Below, piece after piece: positions 23,545 to 36,299 of a stretch of 64,000 bases of DNA (within the stretch, counting starts at the first letter, position 1; each line of letters starts with the position of its first letter). Made by a program: the position numbers and the translations under genes. The stretch covers positions 9,323 to 73,322 of the forward strand of contig CADAND010000010.1 in NCBI GenBank assembly GCA_902789245.1. The letters are read 5' to 3'. The notes under the pieces were generated by a model. The model ran no database searches. It was not told where the DNA came from and saw only the letters and a program-made list of their open reading frames with translations. Source of the DNA: an uncultured Bacteroidia bacterium. Lineage in GTDB: Bacteria > Bacteroidota > Bacteroidia > Bacteroidales > UBA932.

Positions 23545-24483
23545 ATGCAATATCTGGGAGAAATCATCTCGCTCGTCGTGGCTATGTTGTGGACCGCGAC
23601 CGCGCTCTTCGCCAATGAGGCGAGCCGCAGGATCGGCGCCATGAGCACCAACCTGTTCCGCATGATCCTGTCATCCATCCTGCTCGCCATGCTCCTCTGG
23701 ATCGCCATCGGATACCCTTACCCCGCTTTTGCCGACGGCAAGACCTGGCTCTGGATGGGCCTCTCCGCCCTGGTCGGCTACGTGTTCGGGGATTTCTGCC
23801 TGTTCAACTCCTACGTCGTGATCGGCGCCCGCTTCGGGCAGCTCTTCATGACGCTCGCGCCCGTTTTCGCCGCCTTCGCGGGCTGGATCCTGCTCGGCGA
23901 GACGCTCTCCTGGAAGTCCGTGCTCGCCATGGGCGTGACCCTGTCCGGTATCGCCCTTTCCATCCTCAGCCGCTCCCAGGACGGCCACCATCTCACGCTC
24001 AGACTGCCCCTCAAGGGCGTCCTGCTGGGCATCGGCGCCGGCATGGGCCAGGGCGTGGGCCTGGTGCTGAGCAAGATCGGCATGCAGCACTACGAAGCGG
24101 CGCTCCCCGCCGACGTGCCCGCCGCCTTCGACTGGGCCATGCCCTTCGCCTCCACGATGATCCGGTCCCTGACCGGCACCGTCGGATTCTTCGTCTGGAT
24201 GGCCCTGATGCGCCAGCTGCCGCAGCTGCGCGCCGCCGTACACAACCGACGCGGCATGCAGTTCACCGGCCTCACGACCCTCTTCGGGCCCTTCATCGGC
24301 GTGTCGCTCTCGCTCATGGCCGTGCAGTACGCCCACGCCGGCATCGCCTCCACGCTGATGGCCCTCACGCCCGTGCTCATCATCCTTCCCTACGCGATGA
24401 TCTACAAACAAAAGATCACGCCGAAGGAAATCCTCGGCGTGACCGTTTCGATGATAGGCGTCGCGCTATTTTTCCTCCTGTAA
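23545..24483 (+). CDS. DMT/EamA family transporter
   Basis: Ten hydrophobic segments in two EamA-like halves; ATG 23545 preferred over TTG 23521. Confidence 0.8.
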   Translation: MQYLGEIISLVVAMLWTATALFANEASRRIGAMSTNLFRMILSSILLAMLLWIAIGYPYPAFADGKTWLWMGLSALVGYVFGDFCLFNSYVVIGARFGQLFMTLAPVFAAFAGWILLGETLSWKSVLAMGVTLSGIALSILSRSQDGHHLTLRLPLKGVLLGIGAGMGQGVGLVLSKIGMQHYEAALPADVPAAFDWAMPFASTMIRSLTGTVGFFVWMALMRQLPQLRAAVHNRRGMQFTGLTTLFGPFIGVSLSLMAVQYAHAGIASTLMALTPVLIILPYAMIYKQKITPKEILGVTVSMIGVALFFLL

Positions 24484-25689
24484 GCAGGAATCCATCAGCG
24501 ACTCGATCTCTTCCTTGTCCAGGTGCTGCCCGATGAACACGATCTTGTTCATGCGGTCGCCGTACTCCGGATCCCAGTCGCGGCGCAGCTTGGCGTCGCG
24601 CCGCATCATCTCCTGCAGCTCGTCGCGCGGCATCGTGGCGAACCAGTATCCCGCGTCCTTGAGCGTCTTCTGCTGACCGGCCGTCTCGAAGAGGTAGCAC
24701 TTGTCGGTGTCGGCGCTGAAGTAGCACAGGCCCTTGCTGCGGATGATATTCTTCGGCCACTTCTTCGCGACGAAATAGTCGAACTTGTTGATATCCAGCG
24801 CAGGACGCGAGTAATACACGTAGGTCCCGACGCCGTACTCCTCGGCCTCGCCCTCTTCATGGTCGTGATCATGGTGGTGTTCATGGTGATGATGCTCATG
24901 TTCATCGTGATCGTGATCGTGATCGTCGTCATCGTGGTCGTCGTCGCCCTCGATTTCAGCGATCCAGGCAGCGCTGGTGGCCACCTTGTCGAAGTCGAAG
25001 AGGCCTGTGTGCAGGAGCTTGTCCAGCTCGATGTCGCCGTAGTCGCAGGTCAGGATCTCGGCCTTCGGCTGCAGGGCGCGGACGATGCTCTTCACGCGCC
25101 CGAGCTCCTCGGGCGTGACCTCGGAGGCCTTGTTGAGCAGCACGATGTTGCAGAACTCGATCTGCTCGATCACGAGGTTCTCGATATCCTCCTCGTCGAT
25201 GTTTTCGCGCTTGAGCGCCTCGCCGCAGGCAAATTCGTCTTTCATCCGCAGGGCATCCACGACCGTGACGATGCAGTCCATCGTCGGGATGGCGACGCCC
25301 GGGTAGGACGGCCGCGAGAGTTGCGGATAGGAGTTGATCGTCTGCGCAATCGGTGCGGGCTCGCAGATGCCGCTCGCCTCGATCGCGATATAGTCGAACT
25401 TGTTCATCTTCGCGATCTCCTCCAGCTGGGCGATGAGGTCCATCTTCAGCGTGCAGCAGATGCAGCCGTTCTGCAGGGCCACCAGGCTGTCGTCCGTCTG
25501 CCCCACGACGCCGCCCTTCTCAATCAGGTCCGCATCGATGTTCACCTCGCCCAAGTCGTTGACAATCACCGCGAACTTGATGCCGCGGCGGTTCGTCAGA
25601 ATCCTGTTCAGGAGCGTCGTCTTGCCGCTCCCCAGATAGCCGGTGATCAGCAGCACCGGCAACTGCTTGTTTTCCAATTCGATATTCAT
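24466..25689 (-). CDS. COG0523/CobW-family metallochaperone GTPase with His/Asp-rich insert
   Basis: P-loop GYLGSGKTTLLN, CxCC motif GCICCTL, His/Asp tract DDDHDDDDHDHDHDEHEHHHHEHHHDHDHEE, CobW_C-like end. Confidence 0.9.
   Translation of the reverse strand: MNIELENKQLPVLLITGYLGSGKTTLLNRILTNRRGIKFAVIVNDLGEVNIDADLIEKGGVVGQTDDSLVALQNGCICCTLKMDLIAQLEEIAKMNKFDYIAIEASGICEPAPIAQTINSYPQLSRPSYPGVAIPTMDCIVTVVDALRMKDEFACGEALKRENIDEEDIENLVIEQIEFCNIVLLNKASEVTPEELGRVKSIVRALQPKAEILTCDYGDIELDKLLHTGLFDFDKVATSAAWIAEIEGDDDHDDDDHDHDHDEHEHHHHEHHHDHDHEEGEAEEYGVGTYVYYSRPALDINKFDYFVAKKWPKNIIRSKGLCYFSADTDKCYLFETAGQQKTLKDAGYWFATMPRDELQEMMRRDAKLRRDWDPEYGDRMNKIVFIGQHLDKEEIESLMDSCLQEEK
24838..24948 (-). repeat. short-period GTGATC/GTCGTC-type coding repeat encoding the His/Asp tract
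   Basis: Plus strand reads ...catcgtgatcgtgatcgtgatcgtcgtcatcgtggtcgtcgtc... Confidence 0.7.
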
Positions 25690-25775
25690 AATTCTCTTCC
25701 GTCATTCGCCGGCTCTGACCGGCGAATCTCTTTTCCGCCGCGAAGTTAGCAATTATTCCAACATCTTCTTCCCGG

Positions 25776-27356
25776 CTAGTAGGCGAAAACGGGACGAAGG
25801 GATAAACCGCGACTACGGACGACGCTGTTGTGTTTCACTTCATTCGAGTAGAAGCACACGTACCAAGCGCCGCCCGAGCCAATATAGAGGGAGGAAGACC
25901 AATAGAGGCCATCGGTACCCACACTTTTGAAGTCGGCATCGATCCGGGATCCGGCCGCAGGAAGGAAGATACTGTTGCCCGAACAGGGGCCTGTACCGGA
26001 CTTGCGGGTCACCAGCATACCGTTCTTGCCGAAACCTTTGTAATCCGTCGTCCAAACCCAGTCGTAGAGGCTGGCATCACGCAGCGCCGTCCACTCCGCG
26101 TCCGTAGGGATACGCCAGTTGCCGCCCCAAATCTGGCGGGCGGCATCGTCGACGTAGTTGTAGTCGGCAAAGGAGGACTTGCCGTCGCCGATGAAGTTAC
26201 CATTCCCGTCATACCAGATGGCGACGGTCCAGTCGTCTGCTGTGGTGTACTTAGTGATATGGTACCTGTCGGCTTGGCCTGCCTGCATAAAGGCATAGTT
26301 GCCCCAATCGTAAGTGTTCTTCGTCGTCGTCTCGCCCCAGGCGTAGTAATCGCCGTAGTCCCAGGGATTCGCTGCGCCGATGTTGCAAGTGGACCAGTAC
26401 AGATGCTTCTTCACGCCGTTGATGTCCACTTCGCCCATATCCACGTACGCCGACCAAACCTTCGCCTCGCCGCCCGGCAAACTTGCACCGCTGGTCCAGT
26501 CAGCGACGGACACGCTGTCCAGGCTGATGCGGTCGTTGCCCATCGCCAGGCCCAGGGTGGTGTGCTTGCCGCTCTCCAGCGGAATGTCGGCGTTCGCCGT
26601 ATAGACGTATTTCACGCCGCCAAGGACGACGGTAATCGACCGTACACCGGTCTGCGGGACCTGGATGCCGCTGAAGCTGAGAGCGTAGCCCGGAGCCGCC
26701 GAAGCGGCGGCGGGCAAGGCAATAGTCACGGGCGCGGCGGCGGAGCAGGTCACGGCCTGCGTGAGATAGTTCACCGTGGCGCCGTCTTTCGCCTCGACGG
26801 TGACGCTGACGCTGCCCGCATCGGGAACGGACGTCCAGTCGCTCCGCAGGCGCAGGTTCACGCTGAGACGCGCCATCGCGTGCTTGAAGCTCAGCGGCAC
26901 GGCGACACCGGAATTTTGGACGCCGGCGGGCGTCGTGGCGAGCAGCAGATCGCTGGCGGCATTGTCCGCCGGATTGAGCGTGTACGGCACCGCCGTGAAA
27001 TCGGAAATCAATGTCGTCGGGGTCGGATAGATGCCGAGGAAGTAGTGCGGATCGGACACGTTCTTCCAGAACATCGGCATCGCGGGCGTCCACTTCGACC
27101 CGTCGAACGTGTTCGCGACGCCGTCCACCTGGCGGCTGGCGGGAATCTCCGTCGCGCTGCCCAGCCAGGCGTAAACGGCGATTCTGTCGCCGGCGGTGAA
27201 CTGCGTATGGACGCCGTCGTCGGTGGTCTTCGTCATCGCGCCCACCGTCGCTTCGACGGTGATCTCCCCCACGCCCGCAGGCACCGGCTCCTTGCCGCAG
27301 CCCACGAGTGCCAGGAGCGCTATCGTTAAGTATATGCTAAGTCTTTTCATATTCAT
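25776..27356 (-). CDS. fimbrillin-like N-domain lipoprotein with C-terminal DUF1566/FISUMP-type (C-type-lectin-like) domain (operon gene 6)
   Basis: Lipobox LLALVGC. The N-terminal 285 aa are paralogous to 27356..30124. The C-terminus has YWSTCNIGA..WDYGDYYAWGE...WRIPTDAEWTAL...FLPAAG...YWSSS...GLSLRPV motifs. TAATG overlap with the upstream stop. Confidence 0.75.
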   Translation of the reverse strand: MNMKRLSIYLTIALLALVGCGKEPVPAGVGEITVEATVGAMTKTTDDGVHTQFTAGDRIAVYAWLGSATEIPASRQVDGVANTFDGSKWTPAMPMFWKNVSDPHYFLGIYPTPTTLISDFTAVPYTLNPADNAASDLLLATTPAGVQNSGVAVPLSFKHAMARLSVNLRLRSDWTSVPDAGSVSVTVEAKDGATVNYLTQAVTCSAAAPVTIALPAAASAAPGYALSFSGIQVPQTGVRSITVVLGGVKYVYTANADIPLESGKHTTLGLAMGNDRISLDSVSVADWTSGASLPGGEAKVWSAYVDMGEVDINGVKKHLYWSTCNIGAANPWDYGDYYAWGETTTKNTYDWGNYAFMQAGQADRYHITKYTTADDWTVAIWYDGNGNFIGDGKSSFADYNYVDDAARQIWGGNWRIPTDAEWTALRDASLYDWVWTTDYKGFGKNGMLVTRKSGTGPCSGNSIFLPAAGSRIDADFKSVGTDGLYWSSSLYIGSGGAWYVCFYSNEVKHNSVVRSRGLSLRPVFAY

Positions 27357-30124
27357 TAGTCTGAGACGGGGCGGACTGACAGACCGCAGTATCGGCTGAC
27401 GCTGTTGCGGTCCTTTCCGCTTGCGGAAAAATTGAGTGGCAGGGCCGAATCAATGTCATTCGTATCCAGCGAGGAAGACCAGTAATAGCCCTCGGTATCA
27501 CAGTCTAAACGGGTGGTCGAGTACCCGTAGCCAGCCGCCGGCAGGAAGATGAAACAGTGTGCGTTGGGGCCGTCCTTGCGCGTAACCAGCATGCCGTTCT
27601 TCCCGGAGCCCCGGTAATTCGTCGTCCATTGCCAGGTAAAGTGATTCCCATCGAGCAACGCCCCCCATTCCTCGTTGGTAGGCATGCGCCAGGAGGAGTG
27701 CCAGGATAAGCCCCAGGCGGCCGCAGCGGCATCATCATCGGCCTGTAACTTTACATAGTCAGTGCCCTTGTATTTGCTGATGGACGTGCCGTTACCCCAC
27801 TTGTAAGTATCCCTGCTGTAATTGCTCTTCGCGGCCGTCTCACCCCAGGCATAAACGTCGCCGTAGTCCCAGGAATTGAGAGCGCCCAGGTTGCAGACTG
27901 CCCACTTGAGGTTTTTCTTCACGCCGCCGACCGTCAGTTCTCCCAACTCGATGTACTCGCGGCCGTCGAACTTTTCGTAATAGTACTCGCGGGTCCAGCC
28001 GGCGGGACACCCACCATAAACGGATTCCCAGTCCAGGTGCGGCGGAGCCTTGAATGATTTGGTACCTGAGACCTCTGACCCGGCACCATCAAGGAAACCA
28101 ATGACACAATTTGACAACGAGCTAGCATCGAAGGACGTTGCGAGGCAGGTTACGCTTTTTAGTTTCGAGCAGCCCGAAAACATGATTCTGTAGCAATCAC
28201 TCGGCAGCGTCCTGGCAGGTAAAAGCGGGGCTTCGGTCAGGCTGGTGCAATCCCAAAACATACCATAGTAGCAGGCAACAGCTAAAGTTGTGGCAGGCAA
28301 CTCCGGTGCAACAACCAGGCTGGTGCAACCATAGAACATATGGCTATAACATTCTATCTCCAGATTCGTAGCTGGCAGGGCCGGCGCTTCTTTCAGGCTG
28401 ACGCAATCCTGAAACATACTGGCATAGTAGCATCCATCCGTAGAAGGAAGGGCCGGCGCCACTGTCAGGCTGGTGCATCCTTTAAACATATCACTATATG
28501 CAGGCCCCAGCAGCTTCGTAGCGGGCAGTTCCGGAGCGACAACCAGGCTGGTGCAATCTTCAAACATACTTGCGTAGCTGGCGGGAGCAACCGTCATGGC
28601 GGGTAATACCGGAGCGTCTACCAGGCTGGTACAACCTTTGAACATCCTGTAGTAGCAATACTTGATAAGACTCGTTGCCGGCAGTTTGGGCGCAACGACC
28701 AGGCTGGTGCAATCCCGGAACATTTCGTAGTAGCAGGCTTCGCCAAGCGTCGTCGCCGGAAGCTCCGGGGCGAAGCTCAGGTTGGTACAGCCTTCGAACA
28801 TGCCGCGATAACAGCAATCGGAAAGCGTGGTGGCCGGCAGCAGCAGGCGGTTCACCGGGTTCAGCAACAAATGTGTATTGTTCTGGAACAAACTGTTGAA
28901 AGCAAACTTACCCGTCAGTTCCGTTACGGTGATGAAATCAGAACCGTTGATCAGGCTCATGATGTTGCCGTAGACGTAGCAATTTTCGCTGAAACTGATC
29001 GTGCTGAACTTCGCATAATTCACGGAATAGCTTATCTGGGTGGTCTTGGCCTTGAACTGCAGCTTATCGCCGATTTGGGCCAGTTCGACATCCTGGCCAC
29101 TGGTGTACTCCGTCCAGTCGCTCCAGGCGGCACCGTTCCAGGTGCGGTACAGAACGGGATTGGAAGCAGCTTCCGCCAGTATGTCGAACTTCACTTTCGC
29201 CCCCGCCACAGCCGCCTCGACGGTCAGCGGGGTGGAGAGCATGTCCGGCAACGCATCGGCTTCGGCAAGCGCCTCGCTCTCCCAATCGGCGATGCTGACA
29301 CCGCCCAGCTCGATGCCGGTTCTGTTCACGGTGAGGTTCAGCGTGGTGTACGCGCCGGAGCGCAGCGGAATCGCCTCCGAAGCATTGTATGCGAAGTTCC
29401 GGCCGTCAATGGCCACCACCACCTTCTTCACACCGTCCTGCGGAACTTGCAGGCCGCTGTAGCTCAGGGCATAGCCGGCGGCGGCGCTGGTCGAAGACAG
29501 CGGGACCGCCGCGGCGGCGCCCATGGCCGTCACCGCCTCGGCGAGGCAGTTCACCTTGGCCGCCGTTTTCGCATTGACGGTCACGGCACTGACGCTGGGC
29601 GTAGCATCCCAGCCGGCGCCGAATTTCAGGTTCACGACGAGCTTCGCCATCGCGTGGTGGAACTCAAGGGGCACGGCAGCGCTGGTGTTCTTCACGCCTG
29701 CGGGCGTGGTGGCGAGCAGCAGGTCGCTGGCGGTGTAATCCGCCGGATCGAGCGTATACGGCACCGCCGTGAGGTCGGCGAGGGAGGACGCAGGGGCCGG
29801 GTAGACGCCGAGGAAGTAGTGCGGATCGTCGGTGACCTTCCAGCGCATCAGGCTGGCGGGCGTCCACTTCGTGCCGTCGAAGGTGTTGATGACGCCGTCG
29901 ACTACGCGAGCGGTCGGATTCTCCGTCGCGCCGCCCAGCCAGGCGTAGACCGCAATCTGGTCGCCGGCGATGAAGGACGCGCCGTCGGCGGAGACCTTGG
30001 TCGCCGCGCCGACGCTCGCCTCGACGGTGATTGCATCGCCGTCCGCCGGCACCGGCTCTTTGCCGCAGCCCGCGAGCGCCAGGAGCGCCATCGCTAAGTA
30101 TATGTTGTTCTTTTTCATAATCAT
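27356..30124 (-). CDS. fimbrillin-like N-domain + BspA-type leucine-rich repeats + DUF1566/FISUMP-type C-terminal domain lipoprotein (operon gene 5)
   Basis: Lipobox LLALAGC; about nine units of LPATxLxxxCYxxMFxGCTSLxxAPx; C-terminal WAVCNLGA..WDYGDVYAWGE..WRMPTNEEWGAL..FLPAAG..YWSSS..GLSVRPV. The start may be ATG 30118. Confidence 0.8.
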   Translation of the reverse strand: MIMKKNNIYLAMALLALAGCGKEPVPADGDAITVEASVGAATKVSADGASFIAGDQIAVYAWLGGATENPTARVVDGVINTFDGTKWTPASLMRWKVTDDPHYFLGVYPAPASSLADLTAVPYTLDPADYTASDLLLATTPAGVKNTSAAVPLEFHHAMAKLVVNLKFGAGWDATPSVSAVTVNAKTAAKVNCLAEAVTAMGAAAAVPLSSTSAAAGYALSYSGLQVPQDGVKKVVVAIDGRNFAYNASEAIPLRSGAYTTLNLTVNRTGIELGGVSIADWESEALAEADALPDMLSTPLTVEAAVAGAKVKFDILAEAASNPVLYRTWNGAAWSDWTEYTSGQDVELAQIGDKLQFKAKTTQISYSVNYAKFSTISFSENCYVYGNIMSLINGSDFITVTELTGKFAFNSLFQNNTHLLLNPVNRLLLPATTLSDCCYRGMFEGCTNLSFAPELPATTLGEACYYEMFRDCTSLVVAPKLPATSLIKYCYYRMFKGCTSLVDAPVLPAMTVAPASYASMFEDCTSLVVAPELPATKLLGPAYSDMFKGCTSLTVAPALPSTDGCYYASMFQDCVSLKEAPALPATNLEIECYSHMFYGCTSLVVAPELPATTLAVACYYGMFWDCTSLTEAPLLPARTLPSDCYRIMFSGCSKLKSVTCLATSFDASSLSNCVIGFLDGAGSEVSGTKSFKAPPHLDWESVYGGCPAGWTREYYYEKFDGREYIELGELTVGGVKKNLKWAVCNLGALNSWDYGDVYAWGETAAKSNYSRDTYKWGNGTSISKYKGTDYVKLQADDDAAAAAWGLSWHSSWRMPTNEEWGALLDGNHFTWQWTTNYRGSGKNGMLVTRKDGPNAHCFIFLPAAGYGYSTTRLDCDTEGYYWSSSLDTNDIDSALPLNFSASGKDRNSVSRYCGLSVRPVSD
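28196..28840 (-). repeat. about nine tandem 72-bp coding repeats (24-aa LRR units)
   Basis: The word caggctggtgcaa recurs about every 72 bp on the plus strand. The region looks visibly less GC-rich than the flanks. Confidence 0.8.
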
Positions 30125-30127
30125 ATA

Positions 30128-31621
30128 TTATTCTGAAACGGGACGGATAGAGAACCCGTAGCTACGGATGTCGTTGTACATACCGACACTACCGGAAAGG
30201 AAGTTCAAACTCCACGCATGGTCAGGGTAGTCCGTATTGAGGGAAGAAGACCAGTAGTCGCCATAGGGGCCCGCAGCGGTGAGACTGGTTCCGTCCCGGA
30301 AGCCAGCGGCGGAAAGGAAGATACTGTTGCTAGCGCAAGGGTCTGTGCCGGAGGCATTATCCAGGCGGGTGACCAGCATGCCGTTCTTTCCGGAGCCATT
30401 GTAATCCGTCGTCAAAACCCAAGAGTAGTTGGTCGTGTTGAGCAAAGCTTTCCACTCCTCCTTCGTAGGGATACGCCAGTCTCCGCCCCAAATGGCCGCG
30501 GCTGCATCGTCCCCGGCCTGTAGAGTAGCATAGTCACTGCCGGTATACTTGCTGAAAGTGGTCCCGTCCCCCATACTATACGTACTCCAGCTATAGTCCG
30601 TCTTGGTGGCGGTTTCGCCCCAGGAAAAGTAGTCGCCATAGTCCCAGGGGTTGTCAGCCCCAATGTTGCAGGTAGCCCAGAGGAGGTGTTTGGTTACGCC
30701 GTTGACTTCCACTTCTCCCATATCCACATACCCGTGCCCATTGATGAAAGTCGATGCGGGCGGAGCCGCTGTGACGCTCACGGGCAGGTTCACGGTCTGG
30801 CCGGCGGTGAGGGTGATGGCCTCGGCGTTGGTCCAGACGTAGCTCTTGATGTCCACCTTGAAGGAAACAGAGAGGGTGCCTGCCGCGAAGGTCTGGGGCA
30901 CCAGGATGACCTCATAGGTGGCGACGGAAGTCTTGGCCATGGCCGTGCCGGGGGTGTAGCTGAGGGGCATTGGGCTGATAGCGGCCCCCGTACTTGCTTT
31001 TACGCTGACGGCGCCGGTGGCAGGCTGGAAGTGGAAGCCCAGGTTGGACCCGATCACGGTAAAGGCCGTGACGGGATTGGTCGTGCGGCCGTAGCGGTTG
31101 TCGTAAAAGTCGCTGCCCAGCGAGAGCTCGATGATCACCTTGGCGAGGCCGTGGTTCAGCGCCACCGGCAGGACACCACCGGTGGTGGCCTCGTAGGTGG
31201 TACTCGTGGCCTTGAGGGTGAGCAGGTCGGCGGCGTTCAGGCCCGCCTGTGTGCTCTGGTTGGCCGGGATGGTGAGGTCCACGCCGGAGGCGAATTCGGC
31301 CCTGGTGAAGTCGTGGCCGCCAAAGAACGCGGCGCAGTAAGTCGTGGCGGCCGTCTCGCTCTTCCAGAGGAGCTGCCTGTCCGCGCTCCAACCCGTGGCG
31401 GATTTGGAGACCGGCACGCAATAGCTGTAGGCCGCATCGCCGGCGCAGTCCACCTGCAGCCAGAAGGTCTGCAGGTCGTCCGTGGTGATGCTGGCCTTCG
31501 AGCCGGCAAGGGTGGCTTCGACCCCCATCGGGAGCCCCTCCTCCGGCCCCGCGCCGGGCTGCTTATCGCAGGCGGCGAGCAGCAGGAGCGCGGCCATGAC
31601 TATGGATGGATACTTACGCAT
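30128..31621 (-). CDS. fimbrillin-like N-domain lipoprotein with C-terminal DUF1566/FISUMP-type domain (operon gene 4)
   Basis: Lipobox LLLAAC; C-terminal LWATCNIGADNPWDYGDYFSWGE...WRIPTKEEWKAL...FLSAAG...YWSSS...GFSIRPV. Confidence 0.75.
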   Translation of the reverse strand: MRKYPSIVMAALLLLAACDKQPGAGPEEGLPMGVEATLAGSKASITTDDLQTFWLQVDCAGDAAYSYCVPVSKSATGWSADRQLLWKSETAATTYCAAFFGGHDFTRAEFASGVDLTIPANQSTQAGLNAADLLTLKATSTTYEATTGGVLPVALNHGLAKVIIELSLGSDFYDNRYGRTTNPVTAFTVIGSNLGFHFQPATGAVSVKASTGAAISPMPLSYTPGTAMAKTSVATYEVILVPQTFAAGTLSVSFKVDIKSYVWTNAEAITLTAGQTVNLPVSVTAAPPASTFINGHGYVDMGEVEVNGVTKHLLWATCNIGADNPWDYGDYFSWGETATKTDYSWSTYSMGDGTTFSKYTGSDYATLQAGDDAAAAIWGGDWRIPTKEEWKALLNTTNYSWVLTTDYNGSGKNGMLVTRLDNASGTDPCASNSIFLSAAGFRDGTSLTAAGPYGDYWSSSLNTDYPDHAWSLNFLSGSVGMYNDIRSYGFSIRPVSE

Positions 31622-31623
31622 AA

Positions 31624-32514
31624 CTATTCGTCTTGTGCTTCGCCGTTGATGGAATCACCGGCAGTCCAGTCCTTGATGGTGATGTCGGAGGCGAGCTCGA
31701 TCTTGTCGCGCCCCATGGTGAGGTTGACGACGGTGGTCTTGCCGCTGGCGAGCGGGATGTCGGCACTGTGGGTAAAGACGTATTCCTTCCCTTCAATGGT
31801 GATGGTCAGGGTCCGGAAACCGGCCTGCGGGACCATTAGGGAGCCGTAGCTGAGGGCAAAGCCTTCAGCGGGAGTCGCCTGGGCAGGCAGGGACACAGAG
31901 GCGGTGGCGGCGCCGGCCGTGACGGCCTTGGTCTCGTAGTTGACCGTGGCGGTCGTGGCGGCGGTGGCGGCCACGGAGCTGACCGTGGGCGTGCCGTCCC
32001 ACTGGTTGCGGAAGTTCAGATTCACCCGCAGGCGCGCCATCGCATGCTCAAAGGTCAGGGAGACGGGGTTGTCGTTCGCCTTGAGGCCCGTCAGGTTAGT
32101 GGCGATGAGCAGGTCGCTCGCCGCCTGGTCGTCAGGATTCAGCGTGAACGCGCCGGCGTGCAGGTCAGCGATCTTACTGTTGGCGGGATAGACGCCGATG
32201 AAGTAGTGCGGCGTGACCATGTCGAACCAGAGTATGCTGGAGAGCGGGCTCCATACGCCGGTGTTGGCAAGCTGGAACACCCCACCGTCCACCACGCGCT
32301 CGACGGGCTGGCCGGTGGAGGGATCGTTGATCCAGGCGTAGAGGGCGAGTTGGTCGCCAGGCTCGAAGGCGGAGGCGTCGCCACTGGTGGCCATCTTGGT
32401 CCGGGCGATGCCGGCTTCAATCCGGATGGCTTTGGCGGCGTCGGGCTGGAGGCCGTTGGGATGGCAGGCCGTCAGGACGGCGGCTGCCAGGATGATGAGT
32501 TTCAGGGATTTCAT
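31624..32514 (-). CDS. fimbrillin family lipoprotein (type V pilin-like; operon gene 3)
   Basis: Lipobox AAVLTAC. Shares FxxGDxxALYAW...W.....W.....PHYFIGVYP...DLLIAT...FEHAMARL motifs with the N-domains of genes 4-6. Confidence 0.7.
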   Translation of the reverse strand: MKSLKLIILAAAVLTACHPNGLQPDAAKAIRIEAGIARTKMATSGDASAFEPGDQLALYAWINDPSTGQPVERVVDGGVFQLANTGVWSPLSSILWFDMVTPHYFIGVYPANSKIADLHAGAFTLNPDDQAASDLLIATNLTGLKANDNPVSLTFEHAMARLRVNLNFRNQWDGTPTVSSVAATAATTATVNYETKAVTAGAATASVSLPAQATPAEGFALSYGSLMVPQAGFRTLTITIEGKEYVFTHSADIPLASGKTTVVNLTMGRDKIELASDITIKDWTAGDSINGEAQDE

Positions 32515-32529
32515 CGTATCGTTTGTTTT

Positions 32530-33408
32530 TTATTTCTTGGGATTCAGCACTTCGCCGGAGACGGTCCAGCCCTCTTTCCAGGGGCTGATGCTGTAGGAGG
32601 TGATGGTCATGAACGGCTGAAGCTCGTTGTAGTCGAACGACAGGGTGTAGCTCTTGCCAACGTCCACGCGCGGAGCGTCGCAGATGCAGGCGAGCTCCTG
32701 GCCCGTATTCGTTCGGATGGAGAGGAGCAGGTAGCAGCGCTCCGCCCCGGCGACCGTCGGGAACAGGTACAAGTCGGAACCTGAGAGAACCTGGTAGGAA
32801 GCGGCGGTCCGGGACGAAGGCACGCCGTAGCGGCCGCTCTCGTCCTGCCCGGTCAGGATGATACCGTCGGCGACGCTGGTCTGTTTGATGCTGAGTTCCG
32901 TTCCGCCGGGCATGTTGAAGATCTCGAGCGAGAGCGGAGAGACCAGGCGCTGCAGCACGGGACGGACCTGAGTGAATTCGCCCGCGTTCACGACCGCGTG
33001 GACGACGCTGAACCAGGACTCCCGGAGCGGCGCATCGCCCTCGGCCCGGGCGGCCGTGACGCGCCACGGATTGTCATCCGCCTTGGTCACGGGCAGGCGG
33101 AGAAGGGCGTAGCCGTTCTCAGCCGTCATGTTGGCCGCGACCAGCAGGTCGTATTCTCCCGGGGGCACCGCCAGCAGGTCGGAGGCAAGCTCCTGTCCGG
33201 AAGCGTATTCCGCCGAGAAAGCGCTGTCCCACCCGAAGACCGCGACGTCCAGGTGGTTGATGGGGGTACCTTCGTCTTCCGGGAGCTCCCAGCAGATCTC
33301 GGGGACGATGTAGCCCATGCCGGGCTGCGCCTCATGGAAATCGTGGAAGCAGCCGGTGAGGAGGAGGGCCGCCGCGCAGGCGGCCGCGATGTATCTGGTC
33401 TTCATCAT
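32530..33408 (-). CDS. FimB/Mfa2-like fimbrial anchor lipoprotein (operon gene 2)
   Basis: Lipobox ALLLTGC. About 290 aa, beta-rich, in the position and of the size of Mfa2/FimB-family anchors in type V pilus operons. ATGA overlap with gene 1. Confidence 0.55.
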   Translation of the reverse strand: MMKTRYIAAACAAALLLTGCFHDFHEAQPGMGYIVPEICWELPEDEGTPINHLDVAVFGWDSAFSAEYASGQELASDLLAVPPGEYDLLVAANMTAENGYALLRLPVTKADDNPWRVTAARAEGDAPLRESWFSVVHAVVNAGEFTQVRPVLQRLVSPLSLEIFNMPGGTELSIKQTSVADGIILTGQDESGRYGVPSSRTAASYQVLSGSDLYLFPTVAGAERCYLLLSIRTNTGQELACICDAPRVDVGKSYTLSFDYNELQPFMTITSYSISPWKEGWTVSGEVLNPKK

Positions 33409-34691
33409 CTCGCAAATTTGATTTCGGCGCGGCGGGCGACCCGGGCGGTCCGGGCGTGGTAGTCAACACCGTGGTAGTAGGCCTTCTCGATGCGCTCGGG
33501 GGCGACGCCATGAGCGATGAACCACTGGCGGACGGCCTCCATGCGCTTCCTGGAGAGCCATGTATTGAGGGTCTTGCGGCCGGCCGGGGATGCGTAGGCG
33601 TGGATCTCCAGCTGGAAGTCGGGATACTTCTCGAGGATCGGGAGGACGCTCTCCAGCTGGGCGGCGTAGGTATCCGCAATGCGGCGGCTGTTCTTGGCGA
33701 AGTAGACCGTCGGGATCGGGGTCTGGAAGGCGGCCTCCTTCTCGGCGGCCTCGCGGGCCGCGCGTTCAGCGGCTTCAAGAGCCTGCCGTTCGCGCTCCGC
33801 GCGTTCCGCCCACTCCGCAGCCTCGCGGGCCTGGCGCTCGCGCTCGGCCTGCTCGGCAGCGATGCGCGCGCGTTCCGCCGCCTCACGCTCCGCGGCCAGG
33901 CGCGCGGCCTCTTCGGCCGCCGCCAGCTCCGCCGCGGCGCGGGCGCGCTTCCCGGATCCGCCGAAGCGGTAGCTCAGTTTCACGCCCGCATCCCAGAGGA
34001 GGTTGCTCTTGTGGACGTGTTCGGGGATATTGTCGAAGCGCTCCCCCGTCAGGCAGGTGATGCCGCCGTAGAGGGCCGCGCCGATATCTTGCGTAATCTG
34101 GAAGCCCACGCTGGCCTGGCCGCCGAGGCCCAGGTGCCACTGGCGCGGGTTCAAGTAGCTATAGTCGGTCGCCTGGCCGCTGGGACTGATCAGCGTCGGT
34201 GCCACGCGGCGCGTCTGCGTCGTGACCACCGAGACCTGCGGGGAGACGCTCAGCGACCACCGGCAGGACGGTTGGGTAACGAAACTCAGCAGGTCCAGGT
34301 TGGCCTGCAGGTAGGCCTTGCCCCACTTGGTGTCGGTGCGAAGTTCATGGTAGTCCCAGCCGGTTTCGCCCGGCACGGGGGCGATGTAGCGCTGCCCGTC
34401 AGCCGACAGCCAGTACTGGCAGCAATCCAACGCGTACTGGTTCGAGGAGGCGAACTGGCCGCCGGCTTCCAGCGAAAGGAAGCGGCTGAAGCGATACGAG
34501 GCGGAGAGGCCGCCCTGGTAGCCCCAATGGGGGCCTTGTTCGGTAATGCTGCGGAAAGTGCCCTGCCCGAAGGCGGTGCCGCCGTAAAGAGAAACGGACC
34601 AGGGGCGTTCTGGCTGCGCGACCGCACTGATCGCCGCTACGGCGAGGAGCAGCAAGACGGCGGAAAAACGTCTGAGAGAAATGTGGTTCAT
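33405..34691 (-). CDS. OmpA family protein: N-terminal beta-barrel, Ala/Glu/Arg coiled-coil linker, C-terminal OmpA-like peptidoglycan-binding domain (operon gene 1)
   Basis: Signal LLLLAVAAISAVAQ. Alternating-pattern barrel strands; residues about 246-321 are AELAAAEEAARLAAEREAAERARIAAEQAERERQAREAAEW...; C-terminal NTWLSRKRMEAVRQWFIAHGV (N..LS..R...V motif). Confidence 0.8.
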   Translation of the reverse strand: MNHISLRRFSAVLLLLAVAAISAVAQPERPWSVSLYGGTAFGQGTFRSITEQGPHWGYQGGLSASYRFSRFLSLEAGGQFASSNQYALDCCQYWLSADGQRYIAPVPGETGWDYHELRTDTKWGKAYLQANLDLLSFVTQPSCRWSLSVSPQVSVVTTQTRRVAPTLISPSGQATDYSYLNPRQWHLGLGGQASVGFQITQDIGAALYGGITCLTGERFDNIPEHVHKSNLLWDAGVKLSYRFGGSGKRARAAAELAAAEEAARLAAEREAAERARIAAEQAERERQAREAAEWAERAERERQALEAAERAAREAAEKEAAFQTPIPTVYFAKNSRRIADTYAAQLESVLPILEKYPDFQLEIHAYASPAGRKTLNTWLSRKRMEAVRQWFIAHGVAPERIEKAYYHGVDYHARTARVARRAEIKFAR

Positions 34692-34704
34692 ACACTAAAA
34701 ACTA

Positions 34705-34740
34705 CCCTGTTTTAGAGTCACACAAATTTATAAAACAGGG
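34705..34740 (-). promoter_or_regulatory. pilus-operon promoter: TAAATTTG -7 box (34723-34730, minus) enclosed by a perfect 10-bp inverted repeat CCCTGTTTTA/TAAAACAGGG
   Basis: Read directly; the box lies 31 nt upstream of ATG 34691. The palindrome arms flank the box, so this is a candidate operator. Confidence 0.55.
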
Positions 34741-35781: not shown

Positions 35782-35818
35782 AAAAAAGGCCATCGGCGGA
35801 TGCCGACGGCCTTTTTTG
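35782..35818. terminator. bidirectional rho-independent terminator (serves vanX-like gene and tmRNA)
   Basis: AAAAAA-GGCCATCGGC-GGAT-GCCGACGGCC-TTTTTT. Confidence 0.85.
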
Positions 35819-36211
35819 TGGAGATGGGCGGAGTCGAACCGCCGTCCAAACAGAGTCCCAGGTAGCTTTCTACACGCTTATCCTTTCTTTGATTGTCGGC
35901 CCGGAGCTGCCGGAAGGCAGGCCACTACGGGCTTATCCTCTGAATCTTAGCGGTCCTTAGAGGCGTCTGAGCCGCGCATCCGGTTTTGATGATACCCCTG
36001 GATCCAGACTGAACCGGCCTAAAGCTGGAGGGATATACGTCGTTCCGCAGCCTAGGCGGAAGCGATTGATGCTCAATCTCTTGGAGATTAGCAAGCGTAT
36101 GAATAATTGTAGTTGCCAGTTATGGCTCGAAGACTGGGATTTACGGGTCAGCCTCCTACACCCGACGTGCTTACCATCCGAAATCAGTGCTGTCGAAACC
36201 AGAACATCCCC
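35819..36211 (-). ncRNA. ssrA: tmRNA (transfer-messenger RNA)
   Basis: 5-prime GGGGATGTTCTGGTTTCGACAGC...; 3-prime ...GGACGGCGGTTCGACTCCGCCCATCTCCA. The acceptor stem has the G3:U70 pair and there is a T-arm. Internal tag ORF at 36088-36117. Confidence 0.9.
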
Positions 36212-36221
36212 GAAGTGTAAG

Positions 36222-36299
36222 TGGTGGGAGATACTGGGTTCGAACCAGTGACCCCTTGCTTGTAAGGCAAGTGCTCTGAACCAACTGAGCTAATCTCCC
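36222..36299 (-). tRNA. tRNA-Val (anticodon TAC), CCA encoded
   Basis: GGGAGATTAGCTCAGTTGGTTCAGAGCACTTGCCTTACAAGCAAGGGGTCACTGGTTCGAACCCAGTATCTCCCACCA folds as a cloverleaf; anticodon loop CTTACAA. Confidence 0.95.

Follow-up and report, generated by a model that had tools for sequence, protein, structure and literature searches.

The 64-kb window analysed here carries six closely packed minus-strand genes, g1 to g6, which were called as open reading frames and span positions 25776-34691. These are g1 (33405-34691, 428 aa), g2 (32530-33408, 292 aa), g3 (31624-32514, 296 aa), g4 (30128-31621, 497 aa), g5 (27356-30124, 922 aa) and g6 (25776-27356, 526 aa), and the junction distances from g1 to g6 are −4, +15, +2, +3 and −1 nt. 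Direct reading of the sequence gave ATGATGA where g1 meets g2, with the g2 start codon and the g1 stop sharing ATGA, and TAATG where g5 meets g6. The tight packing with short overlaps and gaps, claimed in the preliminary description, was confirmed, and domain searches agree with the gene order given there: an OmpA-like barrel, an Mfa2-like lipoprotein, a plain fimbrillin and three head-bearing lipoproteins. Gene callers elsewhere start g4 and g5 later than we do, by 8 and 11 codons, respectively, so that two of the gaps would measure 26 and 36 nt; our longer versions retain the basic residues that open the signal peptide. In an exact-sequence look-up, neither g4 nor g5 was on record as called here, and this is an annotation difference in the start codons, not strain variation.

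The box TAAATTTG is located on the minus strand at 34723-34730. It lies in an 82-nt divergent intergenic region and precedes the ATG of g1 by 31 nt. Judged from the consensus, it would function as a Bacteroidota −7-type promoter box. The pattern TAnnTTTG has 30 occurrences in the window, where 8.2 are expected. Because two more matches sit inside the g5 coding sequence (28561 and 28903), the box described earlier as single is the sole intergenic copy, not the sole copy. A 9-bp palindromic hairpin at 25704-25727, located past the g6 stop and before the following gene, which encodes a CobW GTPase, is a possible end of the operon, and it has no T-run on the minus strand. A scan for sigma-70 promoters and intrinsic terminators inside the operon returned matches at or below chance, and such a scan is uninformative for Bacteroidota. 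We infer that g1 to g6 are transcribed as a single transcript.

The products of g2 to g6 carry lipoboxes (LTGC, LTAC, LAAC, LAGC and LVGC) with the Cys at positions 20, 17, 18, 20 and 20, respectively, as is typical of lipoproteins. The Pfam family Mfa_like_1 was matched by g3 (132 bits), g4 (69), g5 (137) and g6 (129). The anchor candidate g2 scored 18.5 bits with Mfa2 (PF08842), below the cut-off of 21.2, and 17 of its 23 homologs matched this family, the best at 8.4e-13. Sequence searches of the PDB with the g2 sequence, the g6 sequence and the g2 profile yielded nothing useful and no solved pilin; only the g4-family profile reached a PDB pilin, 3sy6. The pilin fold was confirmed by Foldseek with an AF2 model of g6 (pLDDT 83.9), which matched at least 30 solved type V pilins at E values from 2e-14 to 1e-4. 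They include 4k4k (TM 0.75), 3ufi, 4eps, 3sy6, Mfa2 (5nfi), Mfa3 (5nf4), FimA (6jzk) and Mfa4 (5dhm). The fold of two transthyretin-like beta-sandwich domains is supported by this model and by the Mfa_like_1 scores in g3 to g6, and the match of g6 to solved Bacteroides and Porphyromonas pilins supports the type V pilus reading.

The pilin modules of g4 (aa 1-290, nt 30752-31621), g5 (nt 29240-30124) and g6 (nt 26457-27356) are not equally related. The motifs GD.IAVYAW, PHYFLG.YP and DLLLATT are common to g3, g5 and g6, which are 43-58% identical, while the g4 module is 25-29% identical to those of the other three. The motifs had been attributed to all three head-bearing genes; this holds for g5 and g6, and also for g3, but not for g4, which by its sequence is a separate, positionally conserved pilin subfamily. 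A single Lys follows strand 1 in g3 (Lys40), g4 (Lys42), g5 and g6 (Lys43 in both), and it is conserved in the families of our alignments A1, A2 and A5. In the g6 model, Lys43 is held in a low-confidence loop of residues 40-49. The predicted Arg/Lys protease site is therefore present in the stalk and tip candidates and absent from g2, which has no Arg or Lys within 45 aa past the Cys.

The C-termini also differ among the subunits. A conserved Trp and a conserved C-terminal tail are found in both g2, which ends in SPWEEGWTVSGEVLNP, and the stalk candidate g3, in which Trp283 is followed by the tail TAGDSINGEAQDE. Most plain fimbrillins keep the tail motif W..G.T[IL].GG[EQ]A (strict pattern in 19 of 29 distinct tails). 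The g3 tail, a candidate donor strand, is short (13 residues) and polar, which weakens the case for this role. The g4 type has neither the Trp nor the tail motif. Both g5 and g6 retain a tail-like motif ahead of their heads (in g6, Trp287 and then SGASLPGGEA), which fits poorly with a simple role as tip only.

Three heads of the FISUMP/DUF1566 type are encoded on the minus strand at the ends of g4 (aa 291-497, nt 30128-30751), g5 (nt 27356-27949) and g6 (nt 25776-26456). With Lcl_C (PF07603, formerly DUF1566; cut-off 34.9), g4 scored above the cut-off at 40.3, and g5 and g6 below it at 18.4 and 22.6. The three heads are mutually 42-51% identical, and therefore the membership of g5 and g6 in Lcl_C follows from that of g4. 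The FISUMP model TIGR02145 stayed below its cut-off everywhere (26.6 and 24.6 against 41.65), as did PF09603 on g4 (29.1 against 33.9). These results bear out the earlier claim of three paralogous heads of about 200 aa. The g6 head modelled alone had a pLDDT of 96.6. In the fold search its top PDB match was 8q4e (Lcl-CTD), over just 44 columns at E 0.02; snake-venom C-type lectins followed at E of about 1, and phage FISUMP/DUF1566 models matched at 1e-4 to 5e-2. In this search, the head alone matched no solved lectin convincingly over its whole length, and 4eps was not retrieved. To our knowledge, no member of the FISUMP/DUF1566 (Lcl_C) family other than Lcl-CTD has a solved structure. Each head contains 10-14 Trp and 12-19 Tyr and has a net acidic charge. 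A genome scan seeded on the head motifs found mostly non-pilin proteins with the same head, the best at 44% identity.

Between its pilin module and its head, g5 contains nine 26-aa BspA/PARCEL-like repeats (aa 438-669, nt 28118-28813, minus strand), which are rich in Cys and Leu and have a period of 78 nt. This region matches PDB 4fs7 at E 1.8e-5. Pfam detected no LRR_5 (PF13306) or other LRR family in it even at E 10, and TIGR02167 scored 17.1 against its cut-off of 30. The 26-aa periodicity and the match to 4fs7 show a related solenoid-type repeat; the solenoid reported earlier is kept, but its label as LRR is not supported by LRR_5. The aromatic-rich acidic heads and the g5 solenoid are probably ligand binders, and their ligands are probably glycans.

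The product of g1 begins with a type I signal peptide (cut between AVA and QPE). Its barrel covers aa ~25-244 (nt 33960-34619); then come a helical spacer rich in Ala, Glu and Arg (aa ~245-325, nt 33717-33959) and, at aa ~326-428, a peptidoglycan-binding domain of the OmpA family. This last domain scored 30.6 bits with PF00691 (cut-off 27.2), and its combination with the N-terminal barrel places g1 in the OmpA family. The OMP_b-brl match is weak, and the barrel falls below the cut-off in the window protein taken alone; among the family members, seven of seven match OMP_b-brl (best 2.8e-8) and five of seven OmpA_membrane. In the alignment of the g1 family, DCC and GERFDNIPVHAHKSN are invariant, and the OmpA domain is absent from some orthologs. 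As to DUF3575, Pfam gave no match for g1 and the literature gave gene lists only. The barrel family is small, with 259 clusters among 1.84 billion representatives.

The order barrel, anchor, plain fimbrillin, g4-type pilin and then 0-5 extended pilins was seen in our loci L001, L002 and L080-L083. The same barrel-first order was found in all g1-anchored metagenome loci whose downstream sequence could be read, which refers to related loci at 39% identity or more. Among named relatives, the closest with this layout is a Candidatus Cryptobacteroides MAG. Nearly the same operon, with 0-20 SNPs in 9 kb, is present on six independent contigs from rumen metagenomes.

From these data, the six genes form one conserved operon of an uncultured rumen Bacteroidales, and we consider it likely that this operon encodes a type V (FimA/Mfa-class) pilus. 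The earlier pilus-like reading is strengthened by the pilin fold, the lipoboxes, the Lys after strand 1, the Mfa2-family anchor candidate and the conserved C-terminal tails. Following the mechanism known from studies of Fim and Mfa pili (PMC13655056, PMC5789003, PMC12632263), g2 to g6 would be synthesised as lipoproteins and brought to the cell surface, where an Arg/Lys-specific protease would cut the loop past strand 1 at Lys40 of g3, Lys42 of g4 and Lys43 of g5 and g6. The cleavage would free a groove to be filled by the C-terminal tail of the next subunit. Because g2 has no basic residue to be cut, it would remain lipidated as the anchor that ends the filament, and would donate its conserved C-terminal strand. 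The repeating stalk would be formed by g3. Since g4 lacks the Trp and tail, it could only accept a strand and would sit at the distal end as the tip. The further head-bearing pilins g5 and g6 may serve as alternative tips, which would provide one stalk with three binding specificities, or as in-line adaptors.

The latter arrangement deserves separate consideration. In it, W..G..LPGGEA would act as the donor strand, and g5 and g6 would be in-line adaptors or shaft decorations, so that the tip would bear several heads or the shaft would resemble a brush. A version of the stalk-tail motif stands before the extension in many extended pilins (LPGGEA, LAGGQA, LPDGNA), the strict tail pattern matched 8 of 30 distinct extended-pilin tails, and Ala298, located in a low-confidence linker, is at least 90% conserved. 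Mfa3, which is regarded as a linker, has both donor strands and additional residues at its C-terminus (PMC13655056, PMC5789003). On the other hand, strand exchange in Mfa1 is initiated by the free C-terminus (PMC13655056), and the motif could be kept for an intramolecular role in the precursor; overall, we regard the in-line arrangement of g5 and g6 as unlikely.

It is also conceivable, but distinctly unlikely, that there is no filament, and that g2 to g6 are separate surface lipoproteins in which the pilin fold is a stalk domain for the heads, accompanied by g1. The position of the heads after the tail-like motif in g5 and g6 could block strand donation, as the polymerisation of Mfa1 is lost on removal of even the last donor-strand residue (PMC13655056). 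In the related loci L111-L113, Mfa2-like proteins are fused directly to heads or repeats; an 807-aa lipoprotein combining Mfa2 and Fib_succ_major was noted in 2014 (PMC4159848), and for a comparable locus of B. fragilis, Comstock's laboratory could not see typical fimbriae (PMC12632263). However, the invariant genes of anchor type and plain stalk type are hard to explain without assembly by strand exchange, and so are the conserved free tail of g3 and the single Lys present in g3 to g6 and missing from g2.

In the pilus reading, g1, which is predicted to be translationally coupled to the anchor gene, would probably be the membrane-embedded base: its helical spacer and OmpA domain would connect the lipid-anchored pilus to peptidoglycan. 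As far as we know, the type V pili so far described are held only by the lipid of the anchor pilin and need no membrane machinery. We suggest, tentatively, that the g1 barrel family may supply a dedicated outer-membrane component so far missing from the type V pilus. The barrel would then dock the Mfa2-like anchor at the surface, and the spacer of about 80 residues and the OmpA domain would tie the filament base to peptidoglycan, making the pilus load-bearing; alternatively, the barrel alone may help to flip or release pilin lipoproteins at the surface. A structural role is not required by precedent, because FimA of P. gingivalis polymerises without the upstream outer-membrane genes of its cluster (PMC3436787). 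That g1 is a generic housekeeping porin of the OmpA type, located upstream by chance, is very unlikely. Its sole above-threshold Pfam match is indeed the common OmpA domain, but its barrel family is tiny, the next gene is Mfa2-like wherever a related locus extends far enough, as it is for two of four distant homologs checked, at 28-33% identity, and the 4-nt overlap of the g1 stop and the anchor start is found in the window and in four of six context loci (L002 and L080-L082).

The P. gingivalis Mfa1-5 and FimA-E systems likewise consist of lipoprotein pilins with two beta-sandwich domains. Their stalk and accessory subunits, but not the anchor, have the cleavable loop past strand 1, the same pattern as predicted here, and their stalk has a conserved Trp and then a short C-terminal tail, as in g3. 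Each operon there contains one anchor, one stalk and three accessory pilins, which is the count found here, and the accessory pilins there include both some with donor strands (Mfa3) and some without them (Mfa4/5), a difference that may also exist among g4 to g6 (PMC5789003, PMC13655056). In contrast, the anchor precedes the stalk in our operon, cleavage is predicted at Lys and not at Arg, and the accessory heads are FISUMP/DUF1566 instead of the vWA domain of Mfa5 or the FimC-E architecture. The sequence identity to these pilins is about 10%. The fim cluster starts with fimX and the outer-membrane gene pgmA, which are dispensable for FimA polymerisation and linked to the regulation of expression (PMC3436787). 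In its position as the first gene of a type V pilus cluster g1 resembles them; it differs by its OmpA peptidoglycan-binding domain and by the overlap of its stop with the anchor start.

The order of anchor, stalk and a head-bearing tip at the operon end is shared with the Bacteroides tip pilins that bind ligands through a C-terminal head (BovFim1C, 4EPS; the DGR-diversified BfrT, BthT and BunT), and so is the combination of a pilin module with a globular C-terminal head, of the C-type-lectin kind there and predicted to be lectin-like here (10.1101/2024.11.15.621889, PMC12632263). The B. ovatus operon structures 3ufi and 4eps are among the best structural matches to the full g6 model, but the g6 head modelled alone does not retrieve 4eps. 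Several head-bearing pilins and a dedicated barrel gene are present in one operon here, and the heads are static. That they are targets of a diversity-generating retroelement (DGR), as in the Bacteroides C-Lec tip pilins, was rejected as having negligible likelihood, although DUF1566 and Fib_succ_major rank with the domains that DGRs target most often in gut metagenomes (PMC4159848) and DGR-diversified type V tip pilins exist (10.1101/2024.11.15.621889), since the window has no template/variable repeat pair, only paralog-level repeats of 60-79% identity, and the heads are near-invariant across the six rumen contigs (0-1 SNP in the g5 and g6 heads, up to 3 in that of g4).

The best solved match to the head, Lcl-CTD of Legionella pneumophila (8Q4E), whose Pfam family is matched by g4, is C-type-lectin-like and binds sulphated glycosaminoglycans (PMC11162425). 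It has 131 aa, forms trimers carried by a collagen stalk and uses a basic surface for binding, and 44 columns align, whereas the heads here have about 200-225 aa, are acidic and aromatic-rich, and are each carried on a pilin. The nine Cys/Leu-rich repeats of g5 resemble BspA-type 26-residue repeats (4fs7; TIGR02167), but they stay below the LRR_5 and TIGR02167 cut-offs and are placed between a pilin module and a lectin-like head.

The preliminary description had presented the layout as different from known ones, and its novelty was overstated: a fundamental difference from known type V pili is not supported. Tip pilins with C-Lec heads are already known to end anchor-stalk-tip operons in Bacteroides (10.1101/2024.11.15.621889), and three accessory pilins per operon and a fim cluster headed by outer-membrane genes have been published for P. 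gingivalis (PMC3436787). The distinctive part is the small barrel family that always comes first: g1 belongs to an uncharacterised, dedicated barrel family, often with an OmpA domain, and is the genuinely unfamiliar part of the operon. As a lectin-tipped pilus is not itself new, the finding refines known biology and does not overturn it.

Type V pili abound in Bacteroidales of the gut and rumen, and this operon family bears on matters that are poorly understood for them, namely their ligands, the delivery of lipoproteins to the surface and the hold of the filament in the envelope. The invariant core of barrel, anchor, stalk and g4-type tip, with 0-5 interchangeable and mostly head-bearing pilins, offers a clean comparative system. 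Its gene content suggests that, in rumen bacteria, binding specificities are exchanged as modules on a shared stalk, and the barrel family is a genetically testable candidate for the partner of a type V pilus in the envelope.

The region 25776-34691 is filled by six minus-strand ORFs, g1 to g6 (428, 292, 296, 497, 922 and 526 aa), encoding an OmpA-like barrel, an Mfa2-like anchor candidate, a plain fimbrillin and three fimbrillins with C-terminal heads. The successive junctions are -4, +15, +2, +3 and -1 nt, and the ATGATGA and TAATG overlaps cited in the preliminary description are both present. A promoter-type box, TAAATTTG, is located 31 nt 5' of the g1 start within an 82-nt divergent intergenic region. 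It was described as a single box, but TAnnTTTG, which is over-represented across the window (30 matches versus 8.2 expected), is matched twice more inside g5. No convincing terminator was detected on the minus strand of the operon interior, and a 9-bp hairpin lies 3' of g6. From the gene spacing alone, we infer that g1-g6 would form one transcript. Public gene calls begin g4 (30128-31621) at Met9 (489 aa) and g5 (27356-30124) at Met12 (911 aa); the longer ORFs look more plausible, because the later starts lose the basic residues opening the signal peptides.

The flanking genes are unrelated to the operon. On the upstream side these are a divergent M15 dipeptidase, tmRNA, tRNA-Val and GH95; the downstream side has a CobW GTPase, an EamA transporter and glycerate kinase. 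The tmRNA (35818-36211, minus strand) adjoins tRNA-Val(TAC) (36222-36299, minus strand), with the M15 peptidase and GH95 genes on either side of the pair. Its ARAGORN tag peptide, GNYNYSYAC*, is Cys-terminal, which seems atypical of such tags, and the call may be wrong. The CobW-family GTPase directly 3' of the operon (24466-25689, minus strand) has a long His/Asp/Glu-rich insert (DDDHDDDDHDHDHDEHEHHHHEHHHDHDHEE) and may be a COG0523-type metal (zinc) chaperone. The insert may vary in length, because a strain variant (L131) has 393 aa rather than 407 aa.

The products of g3, g4, g5 and g6 matched Mfa_like_1 at 132, 69, 137 and 129 bits, respectively. The lipoprotein g2 scored 18.5 bits against Mfa2, below the cut-off of 21.2, and 17 of 23 g2 homologs matched Mfa2 (best 8.4e-13). 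The type V pilin fold of the N-terminal module was borne out by the model of g6 (mean pLDDT 83.9; low confidence at the signal peptide and residues 40-49 and 289-301), the N-terminal half of which matched the solved type V pilins BACUNI_00621 (4k4k, TM 0.75), BACOVA_04980 (3ufi), BovFim1C (4eps) and BF1861 (3sy6), and further Mfa2, Mfa3, FimA and Mfa4. The N-terminal motifs described as common to g4-g6 are shared by g5, g6 and also g3 (43-58% identical), but the g4 pilin module shares only 25-29% identity with these three.

Lipoboxes are present in all of g2-g6. In g3 strand 1 is followed by a Lys at position 40; the corresponding Lys is at 42 in g4 and at 43 in both g5 and g6, and Lys43 of g6 falls within a low-confidence loop of the model. 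This Lys is the sole basic residue of the stretch in g4-g6, besides one next to the Cys, and g3 has three others (K28, R31 and R38). The 45 residues after the g2 Cys contain no Arg or Lys. By analogy, stalk and tip pilins that are cleaved, and an anchor that is not, would be expected to show this pattern (PMC5789003, PMC13655056). At the C-terminus, g3 orthologs have a conserved Trp ahead of ..G.T[IL].GG[EQ]A.., like Mfa1, in which Trp554 precedes nine residues essential for polymerisation, and g2 orthologs end with SPWEEGWTVSGEVLNP. The g4-type modules lack the Trp and the tail, as does the tip pilin Mfa4. Since proteins of the g5/g6 type retain the Trp, with a tail-like motif immediately ahead of their heads, they may act either as alternative tips or, like Mfa3, as in-line adaptors.

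The heads had been assigned to DUF1566/FISUMP. The g4 head matched Lcl_C above the cut-off (40.3 versus 34.9 bits), and the g5 and g6 heads, which fell below it, are 42-51% identical to the g4 head, but all three scored under the cut-offs of the FISUMP models. When modelled alone (pLDDT 96.6, pTM 0.92), the head had no good global match in the PDB; the top match was the Legionella Lcl C-terminal domain (44 columns, E 0.02), C-type lectins came next as faint matches, and among predicted viral structures it matched phage FISUMP and DUF1566 proteins (E 1e-4 to 5e-2). The Lcl domain is described as C-type-lectin-like and binds sulphated glycosaminoglycans via a basic surface (PMC11162425), whereas the pilin heads are acidic and rich in aromatic residues, and therefore "lectin-like" is inferred at the family level only. 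The reported LRR solenoid corresponds to nine 26-aa repeats in the middle of g5, which matched PDB 4fs7 (E 1.8e-5) but were not recognised by the Pfam LRR_5 profile. Heads of the same FISUMP/Lcl_C type are extremely common on proteins without a fimbrillin module in rumen and gut Bacteroidales MAGs. The head-motif survey (L001-L079) gave about 150 head-bearing ORFs in 80 loci, up to six per locus, and pilin-type neighbours were found in only 5 of the 80.

In the g1 protein, a type I signal peptide precedes the barrel, which is followed by an ~80-aa helical stretch rich in Ala, Glu and Arg and then by an OmpA domain, which scored above the cut-off (30.6 versus 27.2 bits) as anticipated. A vicinal Cys pair in LDCC[PQ]YW at aa ~89-95 of the barrel (window 34410-34430 region) is invariant in the family alignment, as is a second stretch, GERFDNIPVHAHKSN. 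Because these motifs are strongly conserved and non-membrane-like, they suggest a specific partner or ligand. A search of 1.84 billion representatives at E <= 1e-3 gave 259 clusters for the barrel family, which is thus small. When a metagenome scan was seeded on the barrel it returned 46 loci, and the gene series of the related loci described below followed the barrel in every one with readable downstream sequence. Four distant homologs (27-33% identity) were looked up; an Mfa2-like gene follows in two of the three whose neighbours were searched, with Mfa_like_1 genes after it in one of these two, and the neighbour of the other homolog had no Pfam hit. The barrel stop and anchor start overlap by 4 nt in the window, as they do in L002 and L080-L082, four of the six context loci. 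As a tentative hypothesis, rather doubtful at present, g1 might be an envelope tether or platform for the pilus.

At least six contigs from rumen metagenomes carry the exact operon, 0-20 SNPs apart over 9 kb. Diversification of the heads by a diversity-generating retroelement was excluded, because the copies show no more than three SNPs in the g4 head and no more than one in those of g5 and g6, and the window contains no template/variable repeat. Synteny extends to related loci, including a Candidatus Cryptobacteroides rumen MAG, in the order barrel (with or without the OmpA domain), Mfa2-like gene, plain ~293-aa fimbrillin, g4-type pilin and 0-5 further pilins carrying heads or repeats. In some related operons, represented by L111 (805 aa), L112 and L113 (899 aa), the Mfa2-like anchor module appears fused directly either to a g4-type pilin with its head or to the 26-aa repeat region; the fusion is probably real, because L112 and L113 are separate, independent contigs. 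Such proteins may act as adhesins that are anchored but have no stalk. Three further loci (L089, L092 and L120) carry two complete operon-family copies in tandem on one contig, and thus whole-operon duplication occurs in the lineage.

In Bacteroides, tip pilins with C-Lec heads end anchor-stalk-tip operons (10.1101/2024.11.15.621889), and a lipoprotein combining Mfa2 and Fib_succ_major was already on record in 2014 (PMC4159848). Three accessory pilins are likewise present in P. gingivalis operons, and the fim cluster of that species, like the operon here, has an outer-membrane protein gene near its start, opening with fimX and pgmA, both dispensable for polymerisation (PMC3436787). From these precedents, the core reading of the preliminary description, a type V pilus-like operon, is right, but its claim of a layout different from known type V pili was too strong, since headed tips, three accessory pilins and a leading outer-membrane protein gene are all precedented. 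The feature is real, and it is probably a type V pilus operon whose accessory pilins bear lectin-like heads. What is distinctive is a dedicated barrel family coupled to the anchor gene, often with a spacer and a peptidoglycan-binding domain, a g4-type tip subfamily at a fixed position, and a variable tail of pilins that bear static FISUMP heads or repeats.
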